DNA of 38,713 nt from assembly GCA_012842325.1 (NCBI GenBank), contig DUTA01000073.1, positions 1 through 38,713 on the forward strand, given 5' to 3'. The position numbers and the translations under genes are program-made. Under the pieces are notes generated by a model that was not told the DNA's origin, did no database searches, and saw only the letters and a list, made by a program, of their open reading frames with translations. The DNA comes from Bacillota bacterium (lineage in GTDB: Bacteria > Bacillota > DTU030). Every line of letters starts with the position of its first letter. The stretch's first letter is position 1. This document shows positions 5,443 to 29,962 of this stretch, piece after piece.

Positions 5443-6168
5443 CTAGTGGTTAAGGGTCGGCAGGTACATGCCGGCCGGGGACAGGTTCAGGCCCCGCTCC
5501 CAGGGTTTTTTTATGAAGATCTCCAGGGGAAAGGGGGGAACAGAGGAAAAGGCCCCCACTTCCCCGGCCAGGTCTGACCGCAGGGCAAGGAATGCTATGG
5601 GAAGCTTGAGGACTGAGGCTGCCTCCTGGACAATTCTGTGTCCCTCTTTTATTACGGTTCCCCTGGTTTCCTCGCCCAAATTTGGGTTGCTTACCAGGGC
5701 TGTTACCTTCAGGCCGGCGGCGGCTTCGATTTCCTTTACCAGGGTCGCTATGCCTCCGGCCACCCCCGTCAGGGGGCGGAAGGGGTTGACGACGAAGAAA
5801 AGGTGGTGCTCCCGGGTCTTTATCTCAGCCGCAAACTGTCCCAGGGCGACCGCCCCCAGGTCGTCCCCGCCCACATCGCAGACAACCCGGTACCCCGGGT
5901 CCTGAAGGAGCCCCTTTACCCGGGGCGATATGACGGGCAGATCTGTGTTGGCCCACTCCCGGGGTGCCGCCACCACTTCAATCCCCTTATTCTCCAGGGG
6001 TTGGCCCAGCTGGCGGGAAGTAAAGTAGGGGTTGAGGATGTCCAGGTCCACCAGGGCAACGACGGAGAACTTATCCGCCAGTTGCCAGGCCCAGTTCAGG
6101 GCAATTTCCGTCTTGCCGCTCCCACTGGGGCCAACAAAAATGTTGAGGTGCTTGGCAATGTCTATCAT
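5443..6168 (-). CDS. P-loop NTPase of unknown function (MinD/GPN-like, SIMIBI-type architecture)
   Basis: ORF 5443..6282 trimmed to the ATG at 6168 (downstream of the buk stop at 6188). Walker A is GPSGSGKT, followed by hydrophobic-Asp strands VVALVDLD and VVCDVGGDD. It sits between buk and the OFOR genes. Confidence 0.55.
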   Translation of the reverse strand: MIDIAKHLNIFVGPSGSGKTEIALNWAWQLADKFSVVALVDLDILNPYFTSRQLGQPLENKGIEVVAAPREWANTDLPVISPRVKGLLQDPGYRVVCDVGGDDLGAVALGQFAAEIKTREHHLFFVVNPFRPLTGVAGGIATLVKEIEAAAGLKVTALVSNPNLGEETRGTVIKEGHRIVQEAASVLKLPIAFLALRSDLAGEVGAFSSVPPFPLEIFIKKPWERGLNLSPAGMYLPTLNH

Positions 6169-6187
6169 CTCTCGGTTCCCCCAGTCT

Positions 6188-7276
6188 TTATTCCCTTCCC
6201 CCCGGAGCATAGAGCTTCGCCTGCTCTTCACCTCGCAGCACCCGCAAAGCTCCCTGGGCCAGGGCTTCCAATTCCCCCTCACCCGGGTAAAGGAAAACAG
6301 GGGCCAGGAAACCTATCCGCTCGCGGATCCAGCCCGTTAACATGGTGGAATGGGCCAAACCCCCGGTCAGGACAATGGCATCCACTTCTCCCTTGACAAC
6401 GGTGGCAGCGGCCCCAATTTCTTTGGCCACCTGGTAGGCCATGGCTTCAAAGTAGAAGCGGGCAACCTCTTCCCCGTTATTGATCCGTTCCTCTATCTCC
6501 CTGGCGTCATTGGTGCCCAGGTAGCCCACCAGGCCGCCGCCACCCACTATGTTGCGGTAAATTTCCCTTTCCGTCAGCTTACCGGAGAAACAGAGCCGGA
6601 CCAGATCGCCCACGGGGACACTCCCGGAGCGTTCCGGGGAAAAGGGGCCGTCCCCGTCCAGGGCATTATTGACATCGATGACCCGGCCATTGCTGTGGAC
6701 ACCGACGGAAATCCCGCCTCCCAGGTGGGCAACTATGAGATTCACTTCCGTGTAGGTGCGGCCCAGCTCCCTGGCCGCCCGACGGGCAACCGCCTTTTGG
6801 TTGAGGGCATGGAAAATGCTGCGGCGCTTGATCCCCGGCATGCCCGAAACCCTGGCGATGGGTTCCAGCTCATCGACAACCACGGGATCGACGATATAAG
6901 CGGGAATACCGGCGGCAGCGGCAATTTCGTGGGCCAAAAGGGCCCCCAGGTTGGAGGCATGTTCTCCCCGGGGCGCTTCCCGCAGTTCAGCCAGCATTTC
7001 CTCATTGACGAGATATGTCCCCCCTTCCACGGGGGCCAGGACGCCGCCGCGACCCACCACTGCCGCCAGCGAGTGGGGATCGATCTTTTTTTCCTGCAAG
7101 AAGTTTTCTAAGGCCTGCCGGCGGAAGGGGAACTGGTCAATCACCCGCTTGCAGGTCCCCAATTCCTGGCTGCTGTGGTGTAAGGTCTCCGCGAAAACCA
7201 ATTCCTCCCCCGCAAAAAGGGCTATCTTGGTGGAAGTTGAACCAGGATTAATTACCAAAACCCTTTCCTTTGCCAT
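6188..7276 (-). CDS. buk: Butyrate (branched-chain acyl) kinase
   Basis: MAKERVLVINPGSTSTKIALF... is the ASKHA-fold N-terminus typical of butyrate kinases. 362 aa. Confidence 0.9.
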   Translation of the reverse strand: MAKERVLVINPGSTSTKIALFAGEELVFAETLHHSSQELGTCKRVIDQFPFRRQALENFLQEKKIDPHSLAAVVGRGGVLAPVEGGTYLVNEEMLAELREAPRGEHASNLGALLAHEIAAAAGIPAYIVDPVVVDELEPIARVSGMPGIKRRSIFHALNQKAVARRAARELGRTYTEVNLIVAHLGGGISVGVHSNGRVIDVNNALDGDGPFSPERSGSVPVGDLVRLCFSGKLTEREIYRNIVGGGGLVGYLGTNDAREIEERINNGEEVARFYFEAMAYQVAKEIGAAATVVKGEVDAIVLTGGLAHSTMLTGWIRERIGFLAPVFLYPGEGELEALAQGALRVLRGEEQAKLYAPGGRE

Positions 7277-7317
7277 AGCTCTCCCCCCAAGTAATGTAAA
7301 AATGTAGTTATCCGACC

Positions 7318-8244
7318 CTAACTGTTGCCGGGTGCCAGGGTACTGCTCACCAGCAGGCTCAGGGCAATGGAATTTAACTTGGTCTCATGGGAATCGGCCC
7401 TGGAAGTAAGGACAATGGGGGCCCGGGCCCCGGTGACCAAGCCGGCAATCTTGACCCCGGGACAGAAATAGTGCAGGGTCTTATAGATAACATTGCCGAC
7501 CTCTATGCCGGGTACCAGTAATATATCTGCCTGGCCCGCAACGGGGCTCTGGATGCCTTTCCGCCGGGCGGCTTCCGGGGACACGGCATTGTCCAGGGCC
7601 AGGGGGCCGTCGACTTCCACGCCGGGGAGCTGACCCCGCTGGGCCATCTTGGATAAGAGGGCGGCGTCAACGGTGGCCGGCATCTCCGGATTTACCAGTT
7701 CAAGGGCACAGAGGGGGGCGACCTTTGGTCTTTCAATCCCCAGGGCATTGGCAATGAGAGCTGCATTTCTGATTATTTCTGCTTTTCGCTGCAGATCGGG
7801 AGCTATGTTCATGGCCGCATCGGTAAGAAGAAGTAAACGCCCAAACCCGGGGGGTTCAAAGACGGCCACATGGCTCAGGATCTGACCGGACCGCAGTCCC
7901 CTTTCCTTATCGAGGACTGCCCGGAGCAGGGTGGCCGTGCCCACCAGGCCCTTCATTAAGATATCGGCCTCTCCCGTCCGTACCAGTTCCACCGCCCGGG
8001 CGGCGGCAGCGGCCGGATCCGGCTCGTTGACGATGGTGAAACCCTCCAGATCCAGGCCAATTTCCCCGGCGATGGCCCTAATTTCCTCCTCCCCGCCGAC
8101 CAGAATGGAATTGGCCAGGCCCCTTTCCCGGGCATCGCCGACTGCCTGCAGTATTTCCGGCTCCTGGGCCAGGGCAACGGCGATGGTCCTGGGTCTCTCC
8201 TGCCTCAGGACGGCAGTCATAATCTCCCCAAAGGATCTGATCAC
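7318..8244 (-). CDS. ptb: Phosphate butyryltransferase
   Basis: ORF 7318..8298 trimmed to the GTG at 8244 (GGAGGG 8 nt upstream). The product then starts (M)IRSFGEIMTAVLRQERPRTIAVALAQEPEILQAV, matching the usual Ptb N-terminus. Confidence 0.85.
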   Translation of the reverse strand: MIRSFGEIMTAVLRQERPRTIAVALAQEPEILQAVGDARERGLANSILVGGEEEIRAIAGEIGLDLEGFTIVNEPDPAAAAARAVELVRTGEADILMKGLVGTATLLRAVLDKERGLRSGQILSHVAVFEPPGFGRLLLLTDAAMNIAPDLQRKAEIIRNAALIANALGIERPKVAPLCALELVNPEMPATVDAALLSKMAQRGQLPGVEVDGPLALDNAVSPEAARRKGIQSPVAGQADILLVPGIEVGNVIYKTLHYFCPGVKIAGLVTGARAPIVLTSRADSHETKLNSIALSLLVSSTLAPGNS

Positions 8245-8326
8245 GGTTGTCTTCCCTCCAGAAAGAAGTATAAAGATTTCCACTCCTAGTATCTGCACCA
8301 GAACTTTCCCTTACTATTATACTTAC

Positions 8327-8343
8327 ATGCAAATGTAATGCCG
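8327..8343 (-). promoter_or_regulatory. Sigma-54 (-24/-12) promoter for ptb-buk-OFOR
   Basis: Minus strand reads cGGCATTACATTTGCAt. The GG and GC elements have exactly the consensus spacing of TGGCAC-N5-TTGCA. It lies about 75 nt upstream of the ptb start and directly downstream of a sigma-54 activator gene. Confidence 0.6.
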
Positions 8344-8359
8344 AAGGAATAGGGGGTGC

Positions 8360-8411
8360 AAAAAAATAAAACACGTTTCCCTTTTGCAAAATTTTGCAGG
8401 AAACGTGTTTT
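8360..8411 (-). terminator. Long hairpin plus T-tract after the activator gene; may also act as an enhancer (UAS) site
   Basis: Arms AAAACACGTTTCC (8368-8380) and GGAAACGTGTTTT (8399-8411) enclose the perfect 14-nt palindrome TGCAAAATTTTGCA (8385-8398). On the minus strand this is followed by ATTTTTTT. Confidence 0.5.
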
Positions 8412-8434
8412 CCTTTGCAGGCAATATAATGCAC

Positions 8435-10504
8435 TTAATTAATAATGCCATATTTGGTCAGTTTATAATATAGGCTGCGGATGGAAATGCCCAGGCGGCG
8501 GGCAGCTTCTGTTTTATTTCCCCCCGCATTTTTTAAAGCCCTCTGCAATGCCTCTTTTTCAGCCCGCTGGAGGGTGACCCGTAAAGCCTCAATGGTACCG
8601 GTTTGGTTTTCCCCGGAGGAAGGGACCGGATTGGACACCAGATATTGTTCTCCCCACTGCTGATGCAGGGGAGGCAGGTGGTGGGCCTTCATCACCTTTT
8701 CGTTAAAACGCATATTGATCATGGCCCGGCCAAAGACATTCTCCAGTTCCCGGACATTGCCCGGCCAATCGTAGTCCTGCAATATTTCTATGACCTTCGG
8801 CTCTACCGCCTCCACATTGCGCCCGTATTCCTGGTTAAATTTGCGCAGGAGATAATGGACCAGTTCGGGAATATCTTCTTTCCGCTGCCGCAGGGGAGGG
8901 ATGAAAATGGGCACAACGTTAATGCGATAGTAGAGATCCTCGCGGAAGAGGCCGTTTTTAACAGCCTTTTCCAGATCGGCATTGGTGGCGGCAATAATCC
9001 GCACATCGACGGGAATCGGCCGGGTGGATCCCACCCGCAGTATTTCCTTCTCCTGCAACACCCGCAGCAGCTTGGCCTGCAGGGCCGGACTGATTTCCAC
9101 AATTTCATCCAGGAGGATGGTACCCCCGTTGGCCTCTTCAAAGAGGCCGACCTTTCCCCCGCGCCGGGCCCCGGTGAAGGCTCCCCCTTCGTAGCCGAAA
9201 AGTTCGCTTTCCAGGATTGACTCGGCTATGGCCGAGCAGTTGACGCGAATGAACTGGCCCTTGCGCCGCCTGCTGGCGTTGTGAATGGCATGGGCAAAGA
9301 GCTCCTTGCCTGTTCCGCTCTCGCCGCGCAGCAGGACCGTTGCCGGCGTATCTGCTACCCGCTTGGCCTGCTCTACCGCCAGCCGCAGCTGGTAGCTGTT
9401 GCCGATGATATCATCAAAGGTATATTTGGCTTCCAGGTGCCGGATACGCCTTTTGGCGCGCTCCAATTCATCACTCAAGCGTTTGATTTCACTGATATCG
9501 TGGATTACCGCCACGCTGCCCTTCAGTTCCTTGTCCACCAGGATGGGGGCGACATTGACCAGGACCTCTCTTTTTTTGGGCCCCACCTTCATTACTGCCC
9601 CATGTACGGGCTTGCCCGTTTCCAGAACCTTCAGGTGCATGCTTTCTCCTTCAGCAATATCAACGGTGGGCGGTTTCCCCAGGACATCTTCCTCCACGAG
9701 GCCCGTAAGGCGGGTATAGGCGGGATTAATGAGAATCCCCTTCCCCTCCTTGTTGACAACGGAGATGGCATCCTGGGTCGAATTAATTATGGCTTTCAAT
9801 AATTGCTGTACTTCTTTCAAGTTGGCGATTTCCGCCGTCATCTTGTTAAGGTCGGTGACATCGCGGAAGATAACGGCTGCTCCTGCCGCGGCACCCCTCC
9901 CGGCAGCGAGGGGAATATAATTGCATAAAAGGGTTTTCTGCCCCAGGGTCTGCTGCTCCTTAAACACCGGCCGCCCCCTTTGCAGGGTCTGCTGCAGGCT
10001 GCCGGCAGGGAAGACAGCATCTGCCGGTTTATCCACGGCTTCTGCCGCCCGGATGCCGAGGATCTTTTCGGCCGCCGGGTTGAGCCTTTTGATCTTGCCC
10101 CCCAGATCAACTATGATAATTCCATCGTGGCAGGAATCTATAATTGCCTCCTGTTCGCCGGGGGGCAGGCTGAGCCCTTCCCCTCCCGGTGCCAATTTTT
10201 CCAGAAGGTCCAGAAAGATAAGGGCTCTTTCCTTATCCAGCCACAGGGGTTTAGGTTTTTGTGAATTGTTTACTTTCTCCCAATTCGTATTATTTCCGGC
10301 GGAGAAAATTAGATCTACCTCCTCCAGGGGGATGGCCTGCGGCTCTTCCACCACTGGTATACCCGCCTCCAGGACCGTCTTGTACTCAGCCTTCTTTCCC
10401 GAGGGGACTACTACTCCAATTATCTTTAACACCTTCAGGGGCAAACACCTCTGGATGAGGTCCAGAACTGTTTCCCCCCCATCCAGGAGCGCGATCCTCA
10501 ACAA
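8435..10504 (-). CDS. Sigma-54-dependent transcriptional activator (PAS-PAS-AAA+-HTH; BkdR-like by context)
   Basis: Walker [15 protein letters not shown] motif (YEGGAFTGA), C-terminal Fis-type HTH ([20 protein letters not shown]). TTG start with AAGGAGGGGGTGG 7 nt upstream. Confidence 0.9.
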
Positions 10505-19810: not shown

Positions 19811-20620
19811 TCAGGTAACCTCCTGCCAGGCAGCAGCTACCGTTTCCCTTACCATTTCCGCCAGGGGGAGATCCTCCTCTTTTCCTTTGCGCAAGTAAAG
19901 CAGATATTCCCTGTTTCCCTGGGCCCCGCTGATGGGAGAAAAGGCAAGTCCCTCTATGCCAAAACCCATGCTCCGTGCTGCCTGGCCAATTCCCAGCAAA
20001 ACTTCTTCGTGGACGGCCGGATCCCGGACTACCCCCTTTTTCCCAACCTTTGCGGGACCTGCTTCAAACTGGGGTTTTACCAGGGCGACAACTTCCCCCC
20101 CGGGCGGCAGGAACTGCGCCACCTTTGGCAGGACCTTTTCCAGGGAAATGAAAGAAACGTCAATACAGGCAAAATCCACCGCTTCCGGGATGGCTTCCCG
20201 CTCCAGGTAGCGAATATTGGTTCGTTCCAGGACAATCACCCTGGGATCCTGCCGCAGGCGCCAGGCCAGCTGGTTCCAGCCCACATCGACGGCATAAACC
20301 CTTTTGGCACCATGCTGTAAGGCACAATCGGTGAAACCGCCCGTCGACGCCCCCACATCCATTACCACTTTCCCCTCCAGGACGATGGCAAAGGTTTTCA
20401 GGGCCTTCTCCAGCTTCAAACCTCCCCTGCTCACATAGGGATGCTCCTGGCCCAGGATCCTGATGGCGGCTCCCGGATCGACCCGGGTGCCGGCCTTTTC
20501 TATTTTTTCACCATTAACCAAGACCAGGCCAGCCATGATGGCAGCCTGGGCCCTCTGCCGGCTGGGGAAAAAGCCCCTTTTTGCCAACAGCACGTCCAGG
20601 CGTTCCTTTTTCTCAGCCAT
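19811..20620 (-). CDS. tlyA: TlyA-family rRNA 2'-O-methyltransferase (S4 domain plus FtsJ-like)
   Basis: [31 protein letters not shown] (S4 domain), then [14 protein letters not shown] (SAM-binding). Confidence 0.85.
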
Positions 20621-22541
20621 GCTCCTTCCCCCGCCCCTGACCCTGGCCTACTGGTTCCCGCCTCGCGGGCAGGTCAAATTCACACCTGACGGTTTCTACA
20701 ATGCCGGCGGCGGTAAGCTTATACTTTTCCAACAGATATTCCCGGCTCCCATGTTCGATAAATTGATCTCCATAGCCCATCATAACCACCCGGCAGCCGG
20801 TAACACCTTTTTGGGCCAATAGTTCCAGCACGGCACTGCCAAATCCTCCCTGGCAGACATGATCCTCTATGGTGACCAGCTTCCCTGTCCTTTGGGCATA
20901 GGCCAGAATAGTTTCTTCATCCAGGGGTTTGACAAAACGGGCGTTTACCACCGCGGCATCGATGCCGTCCCGGGCCAATATTTCCGCCGCCGCCAGGGCC
21001 CTGGCCACCATGGGGCCCAGGGCCAAAAGGGTAAGGTCGGAGCCGGGACGTACTACTTCCGCCTTGCCGATGGGCAGGGGAGCAGGATTCTCCCACAGCC
21101 TGGCCCCTTCTCCGGCCCCCCGGGGATAGCGCAGGGCGATGGGTCCCCGATGGCCAAGGGCCGTAACCAGCATCTGCTGCAGCTCGGCTTCATCCTTCGG
21201 GGCCATCAGGGTCATGCCCGGAAGGGAGCGTAAGTAGGCCAGATCAAAGACACCGTGATGGGTAGGGCCGTCTTCACCGACTACCCCGCCCCGGTCAATG
21301 GCAAAAACCACCGGTAAATTGGCGAGACAAATATCATGGACAATCTGGTCATAGGCCCGCTGGAGGAAGGTGGAGTAGATGGCCACCACCGGTTTCAAGC
21401 CCCCCGTGGCCAGGCCGGCCGCCAGCGTGACGGCATGCTGTTCTGCAATGCCCACATCAAAGCAGCGGTTGGGAAACTGCCGGGCCAGCCTGTCAAGCCC
21501 TGTTCCCATGGGCATGGCAGCGGTGATGCCGACTATCCGGTGATCCCTTTCGGCCAGTTTCACCAGGGTTTCGGCAAAGACCTCCGTATAAGAGGGATGG
21601 GCCTTTTTCTTTTTCGCCTTTCCCGTTGCCGGATCAAAGGGGCCGATACCGTGGAAGCGGTCAGGCTCCGCCTCTGCCGGTGGGTAGCCCTTGCCCTTGG
21701 TGGTTATCACATGGACCAGGACAGGCCCTTTGACCTTGAGGGCGCTGGTAAGGACCTGCTTCAGCCGGGGTATATTGTGCCCGTCTATGGGTCCCAAATA
21801 GGTAAAGCCCAGTTCTTCAAAGACAACTCCCGCCACCAGCAAATACTTGAGACTGTCCTTTACCCTTTCAACCGACTTTACCACCTGTCCCCCTATGGCC
21901 GGAATTTTCCGCAAAATATACTCAACATCGGCCTTCAGTTTCCCGTAGGCCGGATCGGCGCGCAGGCGGCTCAAATAGGAAGACAGGGCGCCCACATTGG
22001 GCGAGATGGACATTTCGTTGTCATTTAAAACCACCAGCAGGTCGGTTCCCACATGGCCGGCATGATTCAGGCCCTCCAGGGCCAGGCCCCCCGTCAGGGC
22101 CCCGTCCCCGATAACGGCACAGACGGTATAATCCTCCCCCTTCAGATCCCGGGCCAGGGCCAGGCCCAGGGCAGAGGAAATGGAGGTGCTGGTGTGGCCG
22201 GTGCCCACCACATCGTGGGGGCTTTCCTCCGGCTTGGGGAAACCACTCAAGCCGCCTGCGGTGCGTAGGGTGGGAAACTGCTCCTGCCGTCCGGTAAGGA
22301 GTTTATGGACATAGCACTGGTGGCCTACATCCCAGATAATCTTATCCCGGGGGCTATTGAGGACGCTGTGGAGGGCCAGGGTAAGTTCCACCACACCGAG
22401 ATTGGGAGCCAGATGGCCACCATTCCTGGCAACAACATCAATGATCGTCTTCCGGATCTCTGCCGCCAGTTCCACCAGTTCTGCAACGGTGAGGGAGGGT
22501 AAGTCTTCTGGACCTTTTATCTTTGCCAAGAGCTTTCCCAA
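20613..22541 (-). CDS. dxs: 1-deoxy-D-xylulose-5-phosphate synthase
   Basis: [18 protein letters not shown]...[12 protein letters not shown]...[12 protein letters not shown] start with GGAGGTGA 7 nt upstream. 8-nt overlap with tlyA. Confidence 0.95.
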
Positions 22542-22548
22542 AAACTTT

Positions 22549-23175
22549 TCACCTCCGTCGCATTTTTCCCTTCTCAGCCAGGATCCTTAGACCGAAGTTA
22601 TCTTCCAGCCAGGCCAAAAAACAACCGACCTGAAAGGTTATTTCCCGGCACCGGTGCAGGGCTATGTACTTTCCGGCCGCCTTTCCCCCTACGGTCAGGG
22701 CGGCAACCAGACCTATGATCAGCAGTGAGGCCAGGGACTGGTCGGTTACCAGACCCCTTACCTGCAAATGAAAAATAATGGTGGCGGCAGCGGCCCCGCT
22801 CACCGTTCCGCAAATGTCTCCCACCAGGTCGTTGCAAAAGCTGCTCACCCGATCGGCATGGCGTACCAGGCGAATGGCTTGGGTGGCGCCGCGGACCTTT
22901 TTGGCCGCCATGGCATGGAAGGAGGCTTCCCCGGTGGCGGTCACGGCAACACCTATGATGTCAAAGATAATACCGGTCGAGATAATGAGCAGCAGGATCA
23001 GGACAGCCATGAAAAGTCCGAGTATATTGAGAACGGAATCGGAGGTTAAGGTCAGCATTATGGTCAGGAGAAAGGTCAGGACACCGACGCGTAAACTGCG
23101 CGCCAGTGGCCTCTGGTTTCCGTTGTTTTTATTCTTTCCTTTATTGGCCAAAAGCTTTTCCACCCGCCTGAACAA
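22549..23175 (-). CDS. oapA: Small polytopic membrane protein; candidate OLE-associated protein A
   Basis: 208 aa, with a basic N-terminus followed by about four hydrophobic segments. It lies immediately downstream of the OLE-like RNA and upstream of dxs, which is the published position of oapA. The assignment rests on context, not on a recalled motif. Confidence 0.55.
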
Positions 23176-23195
23176 TTATCCTTTGGAGGACAATA

Positions 23196-23236
23196 GAAAA
23201 AGGGAAAGCCCTCCTCCCCGGGGTCTCTCCCTTTCC
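23196..23236 (-). terminator. Hairpin plus T5 between the RNA and oapA (possible partial terminator, attenuator or processing site)
   Basis: Minus strand: GGGAGAG-A-CCC...GGG-CTTTCCC followed by TTTTTCTATT. Confidence 0.3.
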
Positions 23237-23258
23237 TGCACTATGTATGCTAGGAGGA

Positions 23259-23871
23259 GGACAGGTGGTAGCAAGCCGGGTAAACATTGTGGCTTAAGGT
23301 CTAGTAGGTTTTCCCGGCAATGCACCAGGATGTTGCCATCCGGGCGGTTTCCCTTCACTGCATTGCCCCATACCGTCGCCGGTCATGGGACTAGATTGCC
23401 ACTTAGTCCACACTGTAATCCCCGACCTGCCCCAATCTAGCTTGGGCAGCCTAGGAGCTTTCCTCGACAGTCAATCACCTTCTAGCCTCTTTTGCAGTAG
23501 AGGTTTCACAGTCAAGTCCAGGTTTTCTTTGGGCCCCACTCGAAAACCCGGTTGTCACTGATCCGCCCCTACCACTCAAGGCAGGCTACACTGCACACAG
23601 CTTTCACCGCATGCAGGTTCCCCCCCAAGCCGTAGCCTTCGGCAAGACCACGCACTTGGGTCTCCACGGAAACAGGGTCAGGCCCCGCATGCCATTGCGG
23701 GCTGCCCTCGCTTCCTTAACTCCCAGCACCGACCCCCGACTGGGCGTCAGCAGCCAGCACCAGGAACTTCATCGATGTGCCCTTGACGGATTTTTAGCCC
23801 CGTCTTCAAAGGTGATTGTTCTGACTAGAATACTGCACCACCTGTCCGTACTGCTATTCATTTTTCCAGCA
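23259..23871 (-). ncRNA. OLE-class (ornate, large, extremophilic) structured RNA
   Basis: There is a gap of about 700 nt with no credible ORF. An 11-bp closing helix GGACAGGTGGT (23837-23847) / ACCACCTGTCC (23259-23269) encloses about 589 nt. Many nested helices are visible by eye, for example CAATCACC/GGTGATTG, CTAGATTG/CAATCTAG, GGCAATGCA/TGCATTGCC, CCCGCA/TGCGGG and CTGCCC/GGGCAG. The region has its own promoter. The context ispA...dxs-tlyA-nadK-argR-recN matches the published OLE neighbourhood. Confidence 0.75.
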
Positions 23872-23877
23872 GTTTAA

Positions 23878-23906
23878 ATAATAGCATATCCGGCCAGGCG
23901 GTGCAA
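23878..23906 (-). promoter_or_regulatory. Sigma-A promoter TTGCAC-N17-TATTAT driving the OLE-like RNA
   Basis: Minus strand reads TTGCACCGCCTGGCCGGATATGCTATTAT with an exact 17-nt spacer. It starts 7 nt after the DUF212 stop codon. Confidence 0.5.
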
Positions 23907-23912
23907 TCATGA

Positions 23913-24356
23913 TTAGGGAACATAAAAACAGGCCACAATCAAGCCCAGCACTCCACCGGCAAAAACCTCCTTCGGGGTGTGCCCCAGGAGTTCTTTCAGG
24001 CGTTCTTCGCGAAATTTGCCCCTGTGGACCACGTCAGCCATAATAATATTCAGAACTTCCGCCTGTTTTCCCACGGCGCGCCGCACCCCTGCGGCATCAT
24101 ACATGACAATGAGGGCGAAAACGACAGCGATGGCAAATTCAATGGAATTCCAGCCCAACTCCCGGCAGACCCCGGTGGCCAGGGCAACGACCAAAGCCGT
24201 ATGGGAGCTTGGCATTCCCCCGGAAGTGACAAAAAGGCGAAAATCAATTTTCCCTTTTACGAGGTAATTGACGATAACCTTTAATATCTGGGCAATAAAG
24301 CCGGCGAGGAGGGCTGCCAGCAACACCCTGTTCTCGAACACCTTGCCTCCTCCCAT
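23913..24356 (-). CDS. Divergent PAP2 / DUF212 (YuiD-like) membrane phosphatase-family protein
   Basis: GGMPSSHTALVVALATG...YDAAGVRR...LLGHTPKEV. ORF trimmed to the ATG at 24356. The GTG at 24341, preceded by GGGAGGAGG, is an alternative start. Confidence 0.8.
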   Translation of the reverse strand: MGGGKVFENRVLLAALLAGFIAQILKVIVNYLVKGKIDFRLFVTSGGMPSSHTALVVALATGVCRELGWNSIEFAIAVVFALIVMYDAAGVRRAVGKQAEVLNIIMADVVHRGKFREERLKELLGHTPKEVFAGGVLGLIVACFYVP

Positions 24357-24366
24357 CCTTTCTGTG

Positions 24367-25254
24367 TCATTTTTCCCGTTCCAGGAGATAGTTGACCAGC
24401 AGGCGCAGGGGGTCTGCCTTGGCGTCAAAGGGACTCAAGGCGGCCAGGGCCCTCTCTCTGCCCGCCCTGGCCCTTTGGCGGGCCCCCGCCAGCCCGTAAA
24501 GGGCCGGGTAGGTGGCCTTGGCCCTCTGGACATCGGTGCCCACCGGTTTCCCCATTATGGCGCTGTCACCCACCACATTTAAAATATCGTCGGTAATCTG
24601 AAAGACGAGGCCAAATTCTTCGGCAAAGGATGTCAGGGCCGCCAATTCTTCCTCCCCGGCACCGGCGAGAATTGCTCCTGTCCGCACCGCTGCCCGCAAG
24701 AGGGCACCTGTTTTGTTCTTATGAATGGCCAGGAGGGTTGCAGCATCGACAGGCTTGCCTTCCGAAAGGATGTCCACGGCCTGCCCCCCCACCATCCCCC
24801 GGGCACCGGCAGCCGCGGCAATTTCCCTTATCACCCGCAGCATTACCCTCCCATCATCGCCGGGAACGGAACAGCCGGCCAGAACTTCGAAGGCCTTGGT
24901 CAGCAGGGCATCGCCGGCCAGGATGGCAATGGCCTCTCCATAGACCTTATGATTTGTCGGCCGGCCCCGCCGGAAATCGTCATCGTCCATGGCCGGAAGG
25001 TCGTCATGGATAAGGGAATAGGTATGGATGAGCTCAATGGCGCAGGCCGCAGTAATAACATCTTCTTCCCGGCCCCCGACGGCTTCTGCCGCGGCAATGA
25101 CCAGAACCGGCCGCAGCCGCTTGCCCCCGGCAAAGACGCTGTAGCGCATGGCTTCCTTGAGAATGGACGCCCGCCCGAGATCCTCTCCCAGGATGCTGTC
25201 TAAGGCAAGTTCGACAGAGGCAGTTTTTTCCTTAAGGTAGTCGTGTAAATTCAC
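24367..25254 (-). CDS. ispA: (2E,6E)-farnesyl diphosphate synthase / polyprenyl synthetase
   Basis: First and second Asp-rich motifs are present: LIHDDLPAMDDDDFRRG and FQITDDILN. The GTG start overlaps the xseB stop (GTGA). Confidence 0.9.
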   Translation of the reverse strand: MNLHDYLKEKTASVELALDSILGEDLGRASILKEAMRYSVFAGGKRLRPVLVIAAAEAVGGREEDVITAACAIELIHTYSLIHDDLPAMDDDDFRRGRPTNHKVYGEAIAILAGDALLTKAFEVLAGCSVPGDDGRVMLRVIREIAAAAGARGMVGGQAVDILSEGKPVDAATLLAIHKNKTGALLRAAVRTGAILAGAGEEELAALTSFAEEFGLVFQITDDILNVVGDSAIMGKPVGTDVQRAKATYPALYGLAGARQRARAGRERALAALSPFDAKADPLRLLVNYLLEREK

Positions 25255-27561: not shown

Positions 27562-28104
27562 TCATTCTATCTTCTTTTCCAGGGCTTCCTGGCCGATGTT
27601 GGCGATATGGACGTTTACCTCTGCCACTTCAATCCCCATGGTTTCCCTAACCTGCAAGCAAATGGCCTCCTGAATCCTTTTGGAAAGGGCAGGAACATTT
27701 TCTTCGGGATTGACGACTACCTGGAGCTTTACAGCAATTCCCCCCGGTGTGCCCTTCACCCGTACTCTGGTCTCCCGGGCGCCCCTTATCTGCCGCACTG
27801 TCCGTTGGATCAGATTCTCCACTGCCGCAAAGGAAATCTTCAGCTCCCCCAGTTCGGTGCGGGAGCTGATGCCCCTGCCCTGGCCCCTCCTGCCCAAAGC
27901 CAGGTAGAAGAGGCGTAGGCTGGCCAGGAGAAAAAAGAGGGCCACCAGACCCACATCGAGCCTGCCGTACAGAAGGGCTATGCTTGTCCCCAGCTGTTCC
28001 AGGGAGAGGAGGCCGAAGGCCAAAAGAAGGGCGAAGAGGGAAAGGAAGACCAGGGACAACATGGCCACAAAAAGGAGAATGCGATCAAGAAAACCCATTT
28101 TCAC
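27562..28104 (-). CDS. amaP: Alkaline-shock response membrane anchor protein AmaP
   Basis: N-terminal TM segments followed by an Asp23-like C-terminal region. It lies immediately downstream of asp23. Start is either GTG at 28104 or ATG at 28098. Confidence 0.7.
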   Translation of the reverse strand: MKMGFLDRILLFVAMLSLVFLSLFALLLAFGLLSLEQLGTSIALLYGRLDVGLVALFFLLASLRLFYLALGRRGQGRGISSRTELGELKISFAAVENLIQRTVRQIRGARETRVRVKGTPGGIAVKLQVVVNPEENVPALSKRIQEAICLQVRETMGIEVAEVNVHIANIGQEALEKKIE

Positions 28105-28164
28105 TATACTCCTTTCCCCACAGAAAAAAGTTCCTTTCGTATCTATCTTCTCCCGCTAAGGCCG

Positions 28165-28563
28165 TTACTTAACCCGGATATCCTCTTCCTTTTCTTCCGC
28201 TGCGAACCGCACGCCCTGAATGTGGATGTTGACCTCAACCACTTCCAGGCCCGTCATGGTTTCAATTTGTCTCTTCACATTCTCCTGCACCTTGTAGGCG
28301 ACATCGGGAATACGGACACCGTACTCGACGATGACATACAAATCGACGGCGGTCTGGCGTTCGCCAACCTCAACCTTAACTCCCTTTGATAAGTTCTTCC
28401 GGCCCAGCATTTCCGCTATCCCGCCGGCAAGGCCGCCGCTCATGCCGGCCACCCCTTCAATCTCCGTGGCAGCAATACCGGCAATTATGGCCACAACTTC
28501 GTTGGCGATTTTGACCGTACCCAGCGCTTTTTCCCTCTCTACCAGTTCCTGCTCATTTACCAT
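28165..28563 (-). CDS. asp23: Asp23/Gls24-family envelope stress protein
   Basis: ORF 28165..28767 trimmed to the ATG at 28563 (AGGGGGTG 7 nt upstream). GTVKIANEVVAIIAGIAATEIEGVAGMSGG...VDLYVIVEYGVRIPDVAYKVQENV. Confidence 0.85.
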   Translation of the reverse strand: MVNEQELVEREKALGTVKIANEVVAIIAGIAATEIEGVAGMSGGLAGGIAEMLGRKNLSKGVKVEVGERQTAVDLYVIVEYGVRIPDVAYKVQENVKRQIETMTGLEVVEVNIHIQGVRFAAEEKEEDIRVK

Positions 28564-28635
28564 CACAATACACCCCCTGAGGATTGTTTTGCTGATGCAT
28601 CTACATAATACCAGAGGAGTCTGAACTTGTTTATA

Positions 28636-28664
28636 ATTATACCAGACTCCCCGGGGCAAGACAA
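28636..28664 (-). promoter_or_regulatory. Sigma-A promoter TTGTCT-N17-(TGg)TATAAT for asp23-amaP-DUF2273-nusB
   Basis: Minus strand reads TTGTCTTGCCCCGGGGAGTCTGGTATAAT. It has a perfect -10 with a TG extension and a 17-nt spacer, and lies about 70 nt upstream of asp23. Confidence 0.55.
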
Positions 28665-28687
28665 TCTTTTCCAACCTGAACCGTCCT

Positions 28688-29260
28688 TTATCTGGGACGG
28701 CTATCAATGACAATTGCCTCCAGGGGGACACCGCACATACCTTGCACCAAATCACCCAGCTGGGCAACCTGTTTTTTCTCCAAATGCTCAGCTTTTACCA
28801 CAACATGCACCTGTCCGCCGTTGATAAAAACCACCGCTTCCCGAAAACCCTTGGCTTTAATCAACCCTTCCAGCTCCATTTCCCGTTCCAGATCCTGGGA
28901 AATCTGCAACAAACGGTCATGGGCTTCCCGGCGATTTTCCGGTTCGATGTTGGGATTATGGACAATCTCCCGCAACATATCCATCTGCTGGCTGCGGACC
29001 CGTTCCCTTTCCAGGCGATACTCGATAAAGAAATCCGTCTCAGCCTCCTTGAGCTGTTCGGGCAGTTCTTCCCCTTCTTCCTTTTCTTCCTCTTTTTCCC
29101 CCTCATTTTTTTCCCCTTCTCTTCCTTCCCCTGCCGCCAGCTCCCCCTCTGTACCGCCCGGCGCCCCGTCGGAAATCTGCAGCGAATAGAGAATAATAAA
29201 GAGCACCAGGAGGAGACAGAGGACCAACCACAGCCATTCCCGCCGCAATAACAGGGCCAT
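28688..29260 (-). CDS. spoIIIAH: Stage III sporulation protein AH
   Basis: N-terminal TM segment, an acidic low-complexity linker, then FFIEYRLERERVRSQQMDMLREIV...LIKAKGFREAVVFI (YscJ/FliF-like domain). It is the last gene of the spoIIIA cluster. Confidence 0.8.
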   Translation of the reverse strand: MALLLRREWLWLVLCLLLVLFIILYSLQISDGAPGGTEGELAAGEGREGEKNEGEKEEEKEEGEELPEQLKEAETDFFIEYRLERERVRSQQMDMLREIVHNPNIEPENRREAHDRLLQISQDLEREMELEGLIKAKGFREAVVFINGGQVHVVVKAEHLEKKQVAQLGDLVQGMCGVPLEAIVIDSRPR

Positions 29261-29271
29261 AGGAGCAACAC

Positions 29272-29943
29272 CTACCTTTCCTTTGGCAAGACAACAATTT
29301 TATGACTGCCTATCCCGAGGGCTACTTGGACCGCCCGCAGCAATTCTGCCTTAACCCGGGAATTGCCCGCCCCGGCAGCCACTACCAGCACCCCCTGGAC
29401 CGGGGGGTGCGACTCCTTGCGCACCAGCCCCTGGTTTCCGGTCCCCTGGATGCCGGCCACCATAACCAGCTGCTGGTCTTCCCTTGTCTCCTGAATGACC
29501 CTTTGCCCGCCCCCGGTGTCCCTTTCTTCCGTTGTACGGGCTTCCACACTCCTGTTCTGGGCATAATCGTATTCCGGGCCGCCGGCTAGACTGACATAGA
29601 CGGCCACTTCCCCGGCACCCTGGACTTCCGTTAAAATCCTGGCCAGGCGCTCCGAAAGAACCTGTTCATATAGTTGAAGCTCCGTTAAATTCTCCTCCCC
29701 TGTTGGGACATTTACTTTAATCCCTCCTTCCGGGATTTGTGTGTCCGGTTTCAGGGGTAGTTCCGCCCCCCGCCGGCCCCAGATGCCGGCGGTGAGGAAA
29801 AGGAAAAAACCGATGATTCCCAGCAGCACCAGCTTCACAGAAATCCCCCGCTGGGGCTTGCCCCAGGAACCGTTTTCCCCGTCCACCTCCCCTTTGTCAG
29901 CCCCGAAGAGCAGCTTTCCCTTTACCATGCTAAAGAACCCCAT
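29272..29943 (-). CDS. spoIIIAG: Stage III sporulation protein AG
   Basis: The C-terminus VQGVLVVAAGAGNSRVKAELLRAVQVALGIGSHKIVVLP is typical of SpoIIIAG. The ATG at 29943 has AGGAGGTG 9 nt upstream; the ORF-track GTG at 29955 falls inside that RBS. Confidence 0.8.
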   Translation of the reverse strand: MGFFSMVKGKLLFGADKGEVDGENGSWGKPQRGISVKLVLLGIIGFFLFLTAGIWGRRGAELPLKPDTQIPEGGIKVNVPTGEENLTELQLYEQVLSERLARILTEVQGAGEVAVYVSLAGGPEYDYAQNRSVEARTTEERDTGGGQRVIQETREDQQLVMVAGIQGTGNQGLVRKESHPPVQGVLVVAAGAGNSRVKAELLRAVQVALGIGSHKIVVLPKER

Positions 29944-29962
29944 CCTCCACGGCACCTCCTAT

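Follow-up and report, generated by a model that had tools for sequence, protein, structure and literature searches.

We analysed a stretch of 38,713 nucleotides (nt) from a Bacillota bacterium, hereafter the window, and found that the apparently empty interval between a DUF212 gene and the next gene on the minus strand almost certainly contains a functional, full-length OLE RNA (RF01071) gene. OLE RNA was reportedly described by Puerta-Fernandez et al. in 2006. The window OLE is a routine, canonical member of this known class, of which about 2,800 RNAs have been catalogued in GTDB genomes (PMC11332333). It is of the full-length type and not a reduced variant, since the helices P7, P8, P9 and P13 are all present.

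Identity and conservation of the RNA gene

The whole window was scanned against the covariance models of Rfam 15. The sole match was RF01071 (OLE) on the minus strand at 23857..23249, with 519.5 bits (gathering score 50) and an E-value of 1.1e-149, and it covers model positions 1-616 of 616 without truncation. That this segment is an OLE RNA, which the original prediction had proposed from the letters alone, can hence be regarded as practically settled by a significant match over the full model length, and the accession it had named, RF01071, was correct. Of the 159 base pairs of the Rfam model, 157 project onto the window copy and 147 of these are canonical; in the covariance alignment most of the ten non-canonical pairs lie where P7 and P9 have tips of variable length. 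Throughout, OLE position n corresponds to window coordinate 23858-n.

23249..23857, minus strand: OLE RNA gene, full RF01071 match, 609 nt

For comparison, one genome per GTDB species was scanned for the conserved motif GGGCACATCGATGAAGNTNCNNG, which gave at least 120 loci. An OLE homologue is present in all 120 listed motif loci, and the 104 complete listed copies were aligned with the window copy using MAFFT (105 sequences). In the 104 other listed OLEs, 166 columns show at least 97% conservation, and the window OLE keeps each of them, as well as 225 of the 227 columns conserved to at least 90%. Its identity to the listed copies has a median of 64%, and the nearest listed ones come from Peptococcaceae and Symbiobacterium metagenome-assembled genomes. 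A near-identical OLE was not found among the at least 120 loci listed, the best being 71% identical. Such complete retention of the invariant columns, at a median identity of 64%, marks a functional member of the family that evolves independently.

This bears on the question of whether the locus is a decaying, non-functional OLE relic, which we consider extremely improbable. The ten non-canonical pairs, a U-G pair in P2 that is unique to the window and a promoter that is weaker than the class norm might be taken as signs of decay. However, all 166 class-invariant positions are intact, only two of the 227 positions with at least 90% conservation differ, and most of the non-canonical pairs fall into the P7 and P9 tips mentioned above. 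Moreover, the oapA gene is intact, with all of its family-invariant residues.

The interval itself begins behind the TAA stop codon of DUF212 (23915-23913, minus strand) and extends over about 737 nt to the next open reading frame (ORF), in good agreement with the gap of about 735 nt and the coordinates first proposed. The next ORF starts at 23175 if the longest ORF is taken and at 23151 according to gene callers, and there is no credible ORF in between. Three ORFs of at least 60 amino acids (aa) overlap the interval, located at 23176-23358 on the minus strand (60 aa) and at 22778-23440 (220 aa) and 23611-23877 (88 aa) on the plus strand. Their existence is the argument for a protein-coding region, expressed either from small gene-strand ORFs or from the 220-aa antisense ORF, and we give this next to no credence. 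None of the three matches a Pfam family, the hairpin tips vary in length, and conservation is RNA-like, with compensatory double substitutions at 151 base pairs. At a G+C content of 56-59%, long spurious ORFs are expected. The 220-aa ORF, which starts with ATG and lies on the strand opposite to oapA and the 3' part of OLE, most likely owes its existence to the high G+C content. The 609-nt OLE core has a folding energy of -285 kcal/mol (z = -7.7), and none of 20 dinucleotide shuffles was as good.

Secondary structure and covariation

The structure under study consists of the Rfam pairs projected from the window copy together with P1, P2, P3 and P3.1, which are unpaired in the Rfam consensus line; in OLE RNAs the two domains are closed by P1-P3. 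Its 29 helices with 182 pairs are paired in 87.6% of 18,084 cells across the 105 sequences, as judged on a MAFFT alignment that is not structure-guided and with a structure derived from one of the aligned sequences. When the 3' partners are slid by 1-3 columns, pairing falls to 37-47%. Compensatory double changes occur at 151 pairs, and 0 of 500 shuffles reach the observed values. The variable P9 tip is paired to only 40-45%, because the alignment did not take structure into account. Overall, covariation supports the OLE fold, and the window copy can form this P1-P15 architecture. The elements on which the following discussion is based are:

23837..23847 (OLE 11-21), minus strand: P1, 5' strand, GGACAGGUGGU
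23259..23269 (OLE 589-599), minus strand: P1, 3' strand, ACCACCUGUCC
23825..23835, minus strand: P2, 5' strand, CAG (OLE 23-25) and UCUAG (OLE 29-33)
23447..23454 (OLE 404-411), minus strand: P2, 3' strand, CUAGGCUG
23811..23823, minus strand: P3 and P3.1, 5' strands, CAG (OLE 35-37) and CAAUCACC (OLE 40-47)
23468..23479, minus strand: P3.1 and P3, 3' strands, GGUGAUUG (OLE 379-386) and CUG (OLE 388-390)
23791..23798, minus strand: A-rich loop of P4 (L4), GCUAAAAA
23531..23536, minus strand: distal loop of P9, self-complementary GGGCCC
23324..23345, minus strand: P13 stem-loop, GCCCGGAUG-GCAA-CAUCCUGGU; helix 29, 87% paired

The original prediction had listed a set of complementary segments and had asked whether they covary. 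Every segment on this list exists in the sequence, and P1, P3.1 and the consensus helices covary or agree with Rfam, as seen on the MAFFT alignment; two of the listed complementarities turned out to be due to chance and one short helix was placed in the wrong register. The proposed closing helix of 11 base pairs (bp) is exact and corresponds to P1: GGACAGGTGGT (23847-23837) is fully complementary to ACCACCTGTCC (23269-23259), with 589 nt enclosed. Conservation across the class is restricted to its inner part, where the 6-bp core GGUGGU/ACCACC (5' strand at OLE 16-21) is 96% paired with covariation. The outer five pairs (OLE 11-15) fade from inside to out, with 87, 70, 65, 63 and 40% pairing, so that the conserved P1 stem comprises about 6-7 bp.

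In P2, which had been missing from the list, CAG..UCUAG joins CUAGG.CUG; pairing is at 100% in the 105 sequences, with one covarying pair. Its palindromic CUAG is reportedly part of an OapA-binding site (PMC12265935). At the P2 pair 23829/23450 (OLE 29/408), the window has the sole U-G among the 105 OLEs, where UA is found in 85 and CG in 19; this pair looks like an intermediate of a compensatory change.

The long-range helix of 8 bp described earlier (CAATCACC/GGTGATTG) is P3.1 and covaries strongly, being paired to 71-85% with many compensatory changes. For the adjacent AGU/ACU register no compensatory change was found; the supported short helix is CAG/CUG, that is P3, which is 94.6% paired and covaries as CAG/CUG, CAA/UUG and CGG/CCG. 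Together P3 and P3.1 have 11 bp in the window, compared to the typical 12 bp (PMC12265935).

Among the local hairpins, GACGG/CCGTC is P4, and GGCAATGCA/TGCATTGCC enclosing GGATG-GCAA-CATCC (in RNA form GGCAAUGCA/UGCAUUGCC and GGAUG-GCAA-CAUCC) represents the P12/P13 region; both are consistent with the consensus, as is CCCGCA/TGCGGG. The pairing CTAGATTG/CAATCTAG is seen in only 40% of the 105 sequences and competes with consensus helices, and it is therefore regarded as a species-specific chance complementarity. The same applies to CTGCCC/GGGCAG, which is 55% paired and competes with consensus pairs. Lacking conservation and conflicting with the consensus fold, both were rejected as helices of the class, as was the AGU/ACU register.

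The P13 region is bound by OapB in B. halodurans (PMC12265935), and the presence of this stem-loop again identifies the window copy as a full-length OLE. Two further elements are related to dimerisation. The L4 motif CUAAAAAU occurs in 100 of the 105 OLEs, including the window, and the A-rich loop forms an A-A dimer bridge in structures solved by cryo-electron microscopy (cryo-EM) (PMC12286853, PMC12265935). GGCC in the distal loop of P9 is found in 92 of the 105, and the palindrome of this loop serves as a kissing-loop dimer contact (PMC12286853, PMC12265935). A check of the letters found both motifs in the window OLE.

Expression and the partner protein OapA

The following elements flank the RNA:

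23878..23906, minus strand: putative sigma-A promoter, with -35 TTGCAC (23906-23901), 17-nt spacer, TG (23886-23885) and -10 TATTAT (23883-23878)
23193..23219, minus strand: weak G-U-rich hairpin with U tract, between OLE and oapA
22549..23151, minus strand: oapA, 200 aa according to gene callers; longest ORF to 23175

The promoter site is located just past the DUF212 stop codon, where the TG at 23886-23885 makes the -10 element extended (TGcTATTAT), and transcription would start near 23871. At 88 of the 104 other listed loci, a site matching at least 9 of 12 consensus positions is found within 90 nt of P1, compared to 22 ± 3 in shuffled controls. The TGn is carried by 70 of these 88 sites, and an exact TATAAT is present in 61 of the 104 listed loci. 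A frequent form of the motif is TGCTATAAT, and its counterpart in the window is TGCTATTAT. As far as can be judged from sequence, an extended -10 (TGnTATAAT) right before ole is a class-wide feature. The idea that the RNA has its own promoter, put forward for exactly this site, is in line with the class-wide signal and with experiments in B. halodurans (PMC3413148).

That OLE has its own promoter is already known. It has been demonstrated by experiment only in B. halodurans, where the OLE-proximal promoter is active and ethanol-responsive, raises expression more than 100-fold and gives 5' ends near the start of P1 (PMC3413148). Some read-through into ole from upstream genes has also been documented (PMC12265935, PMC3413148). 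Judging from its sequence and the class-wide pattern, an extended -10 sigma-A promoter of its own, located about 25-35 nt upstream of P1, would drive the window OLE, and read-through from the xseA-ispA-DUF212 genes probably contributes as well.

The stem of the hairpin at 23219-23193 depends on G-U pairing to the U tract. The hairpin is therefore weak (z = -1.8) and was rejected as an efficient intrinsic terminator. It may act as a partial terminator or processing site, keeping OLE in excess over the oapA mRNA. A terminator-like site within 130 nt past P1 is found in a minority of the listed loci (18 of 103, compared to 3.2 in shuffled sequences).

The rarity of such sites, together with the position of OLE on the same strand as oapA and only about 100 nt upstream of it, with just this weak hairpin and U tract in between, would fit a region that is mainly cis-acting, namely a long structured 5' leader for oapA-dxs and not a stable RNA acting in trans. 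We consider this very unlikely. In B. halodurans, OLE occurs as one discrete RNA species of exceptional stability and abundance, and ole together with oap at a distal locus rescues the knock-out (PMC3413148). Moreover, OLE binds OapA, OapB, OapC and bS21 and forms RNA dimers (PMC12265935, PMC12286853), and about 25% of its nucleotides are near-invariant over 600 nt, which is far beyond the needs of any known leader.

A homologue of the oapA ORF of the window directly follows OLE on the same strand in 106 of the 120 listed loci, and for this reason the downstream 200-aa protein is assigned, by homology, as OapA, the membrane partner of OLE. It has four hydrophobic segments and keeps eight family-invariant residues (D64, G67, D108, G111, D112, G119, K157 and K161), including the basic motif GGKxxGK. 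At default thresholds, the ORF gave no match in NCBIfam and Pfam. With a relaxed threshold, a weak similarity to CNNM/DUF21 was detected (E 0.006), and this match is common to 53 of 77 OapA homologues (best 4e-9). These features match the published description of OapA, with four transmembrane helices, a basic cytoplasmic cluster and a distant relation to MpfA/CNNM (PMC12265935).

Proposed function, gene neighbourhood and significance

Previous studies have reported that OLE is abundant, stable and membrane-localised, that it binds OapA cooperatively, and that it requires OapA, OapB and OapC, with bS21 also bound. Knock-out strains show sensitivity towards ethanol, cold, Mg2+ and poor carbon sources, and cryo-EM has revealed RNA-only dimers, in which the way P3/P3.1 project points to membrane spanning. 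For OapA, a function in divalent-cation transport is presumed, and OLE genes anticorrelate with MpfA, suggesting that OLE replaces the regulatory domains of MpfA (PMC12265935, PMC12286853, PMC3413148 for all of these). What we found in the window is the family membership, an intact fold, an intact partner gene, the dimerisation motifs and the P13 region for OapB.

By homology to the B. halodurans and Clostridium systems, the window RNA would be abundant and stable and would dimerise via the A-rich P4 loop, the P5/P6 loops and the palindromic P9 loop. A dimer of OapA, encoded just downstream, would bind palindromic sites near P2 and P4a and thereby tether the RNA to the cell membrane; according to the newest model, P3/P3.1 would thread through it. 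With OapB, OapC and bS21, the resulting ribonucleoprotein (RNP) may aid adaptation to short-chain alcohols, cold, excess Mg2+ and poor carbon sources. The OLE RNA may modulate CNNM-like divalent-cation transport by OapA and would then take over the part that the CBS and CorC regulatory domains play in the all-protein MpfA transporters. By analogy with these systems, we lean slightly towards this as the most likely mechanism, that is OLE as the RNA regulatory module of a CNNM-like transporter in a stress-sensing RNP.

Several points weigh against a functional OLE RNP of this kind. The promoter agrees with the consensus at just 8 of 12 positions, which is why the consensus scan missed it, although no better site was seen upstream of P1, and its -10 ends 35 nt before the P1 core, compared to a class median of 16 (range 0-60 in the listed loci). 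The CNNM score of the window OapA is 16.7 bits, below the Pfam threshold of 28.4, and a profile of the 77 OapA homologues found no sequence relative in the PDB at E-values up to 1. The oapB and oapC genes, which would complete the RNP, are not in the 38.7-kilobase (kb) window. Furthermore, the transmembrane model and the idea of transporter regulation are labelled hypotheses by their authors, and the 2025 literature does not yet assign an established biochemical activity to OLE, not even in model organisms (PMC12265935), so that the earlier statement to this effect is still valid.

Comparison with known systems places the window RNA among the full-length OLEs (RF01071; consensus of Fernando & Breaker 2024). 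It shares with them the 609-nt length, the invariant nucleotides, P1-P15 including P7/P8/P9, the OapB site in P13 and the location between ispA and oapA-dxs. A site resembling their proximal extended -10 promoter is present, and the host is probably, like theirs, an anaerobic, spore-forming member of the Bacillota. It differs from other full-length OLEs only in minor features: P1 is extended to 11 bp, the P7 tip is 7 nt shorter than the model, the P2 U-G pair stands alone, the -10 is more distant from P1, and a DUF212 gene separates ispA from ole, as it does in about 12% of the listed loci. Variant 1 (TANB77) and variant 2 (RF39) have conserved core nucleotides in common with the window, whereas their P7, P8, P9 and P13 OapB site are shortened or missing (PMC11332333). 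The MpfA/CNNM-CorC Mg2+ transporters are related in that OapA is weakly similar to the CNNM transmembrane domain and that the knock-out phenotypes of MpfA and OLE systems overlap (PMC12265935). In contrast to MpfA, OapA has no CBS or CorC domains, for which the OLE RNA is a proposed replacement. Like OLE, the RNAs GOLLD, ROOL, HEARO and raiA are large, structured and non-coding with unknown biochemistry, but none of them has a match in the window, where the Rfam scan gave OLE only. GOLLD and ROOL also form homo-oligomers (PMC12286853), but these are phage-associated nanocages and not membrane RNPs.

The gene order on the minus strand is spoIIIAA-AH, two Asp23 genes, nusB, xseA, xseB, ispA, DUF212, OLE, oapA, dxs, tlyA, nadK, argR, recN, spoIVB and spo0A (Pfam, NCBIfam). 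The neighbourhood that had suggested an OLE RNA in the first place (xseAB, ispA, oapA, dxs, tlyA, nadK, argR and recN) is therefore present, and it recurs at other OLE loci. Orientation is constant in the 120 listed loci, with ispA directly upstream in 69 and dxs downstream in 76. The window Dxs is at most about 65% identical to that of any locus listed.

23913..24428, minus strand: DUF212 (divergent PAP2), PF02681, 6.5e-51
24367..25254, minus strand: ispA (farnesyl diphosphate synthase)
20613..22541, minus strand: dxs (1-deoxy-D-xylulose-5-phosphate synthase)

The two adjacent Asp23-family genes (27562-28767, minus strand) lie upstream of nusB, and in the first of them the match is confined to the C-terminal part of the domain. 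Both are probably yqhY-type envelope-stress genes, which are frequent ole neighbours in the literature (PMC12265935). In the region 5443-10504, a sigma-54 activator with PAS domains (8435-10504, minus strand) lies upstream of a phosphate acetyl/butyryl-transferase gene and an acetate/butyrate-kinase-like gene. No Pfam match was obtained for a 279-aa ORF at 5443-6282 or for a 227-aa ORF (29272-29955) that lies within the spoIIIA operon.

The window contains the spoIIIA operon, spoIVB and spo0A and has a G+C content of 51-60%. An identical NadK is encoded on metagenome contigs from a biogas fermenter, with the same downstream genes (part of oapA, dxs through spoIVB). This is consistent with an uncultured, spore-forming anaerobic member of the Bacillota as host, in line with the anaerobic or extremophilic Bacillota that are known to carry OLE.

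In 12 of 100 listed OLE loci, from several Clostridia lineages, the genes are arranged as ispA-DUF212-ole. These loci are L013, L021, L023, L033, L043, L045, L071, L075, L083, L102, L110 and L112; at a thirteenth, L048, the genes lie about 2.3 kb upstream. An association of DUF212 with ole was not found in the searchable literature, a search that did not extend to the gene-association paper of Breaker et al. 2023, where it may already be listed. No mention of DUF212, PAP2, yuiD, the promoter or ispA was found in Fernando & Breaker 2024 (PMC11332333), and a literature search for genes associated with ole led only to the 2025 review. That the DUF212 protein is a functional partner of the OLE-OapA particle and not a passenger appears unlikely to us. 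One possibility for such a role would be a membrane lipid-phosphate or isoprenoid-diphosphate phosphatase coupled to the RNP. If true, this partnership would be a concrete biochemical tie between OLE RNA and the surrounding isoprenoid and cell-envelope genes.

The locus as such raises no new question. OLE RNA is intriguing as a large RNA with ribozyme-like conservation that is membrane-bound and, in current models, possibly membrane-spanning. For this genome, the value of our finding lies in annotation: the 'empty' interval of 0.7 kb can be labelled ole and the downstream hypothetical protein oapA, and the operon can be read accordingly.

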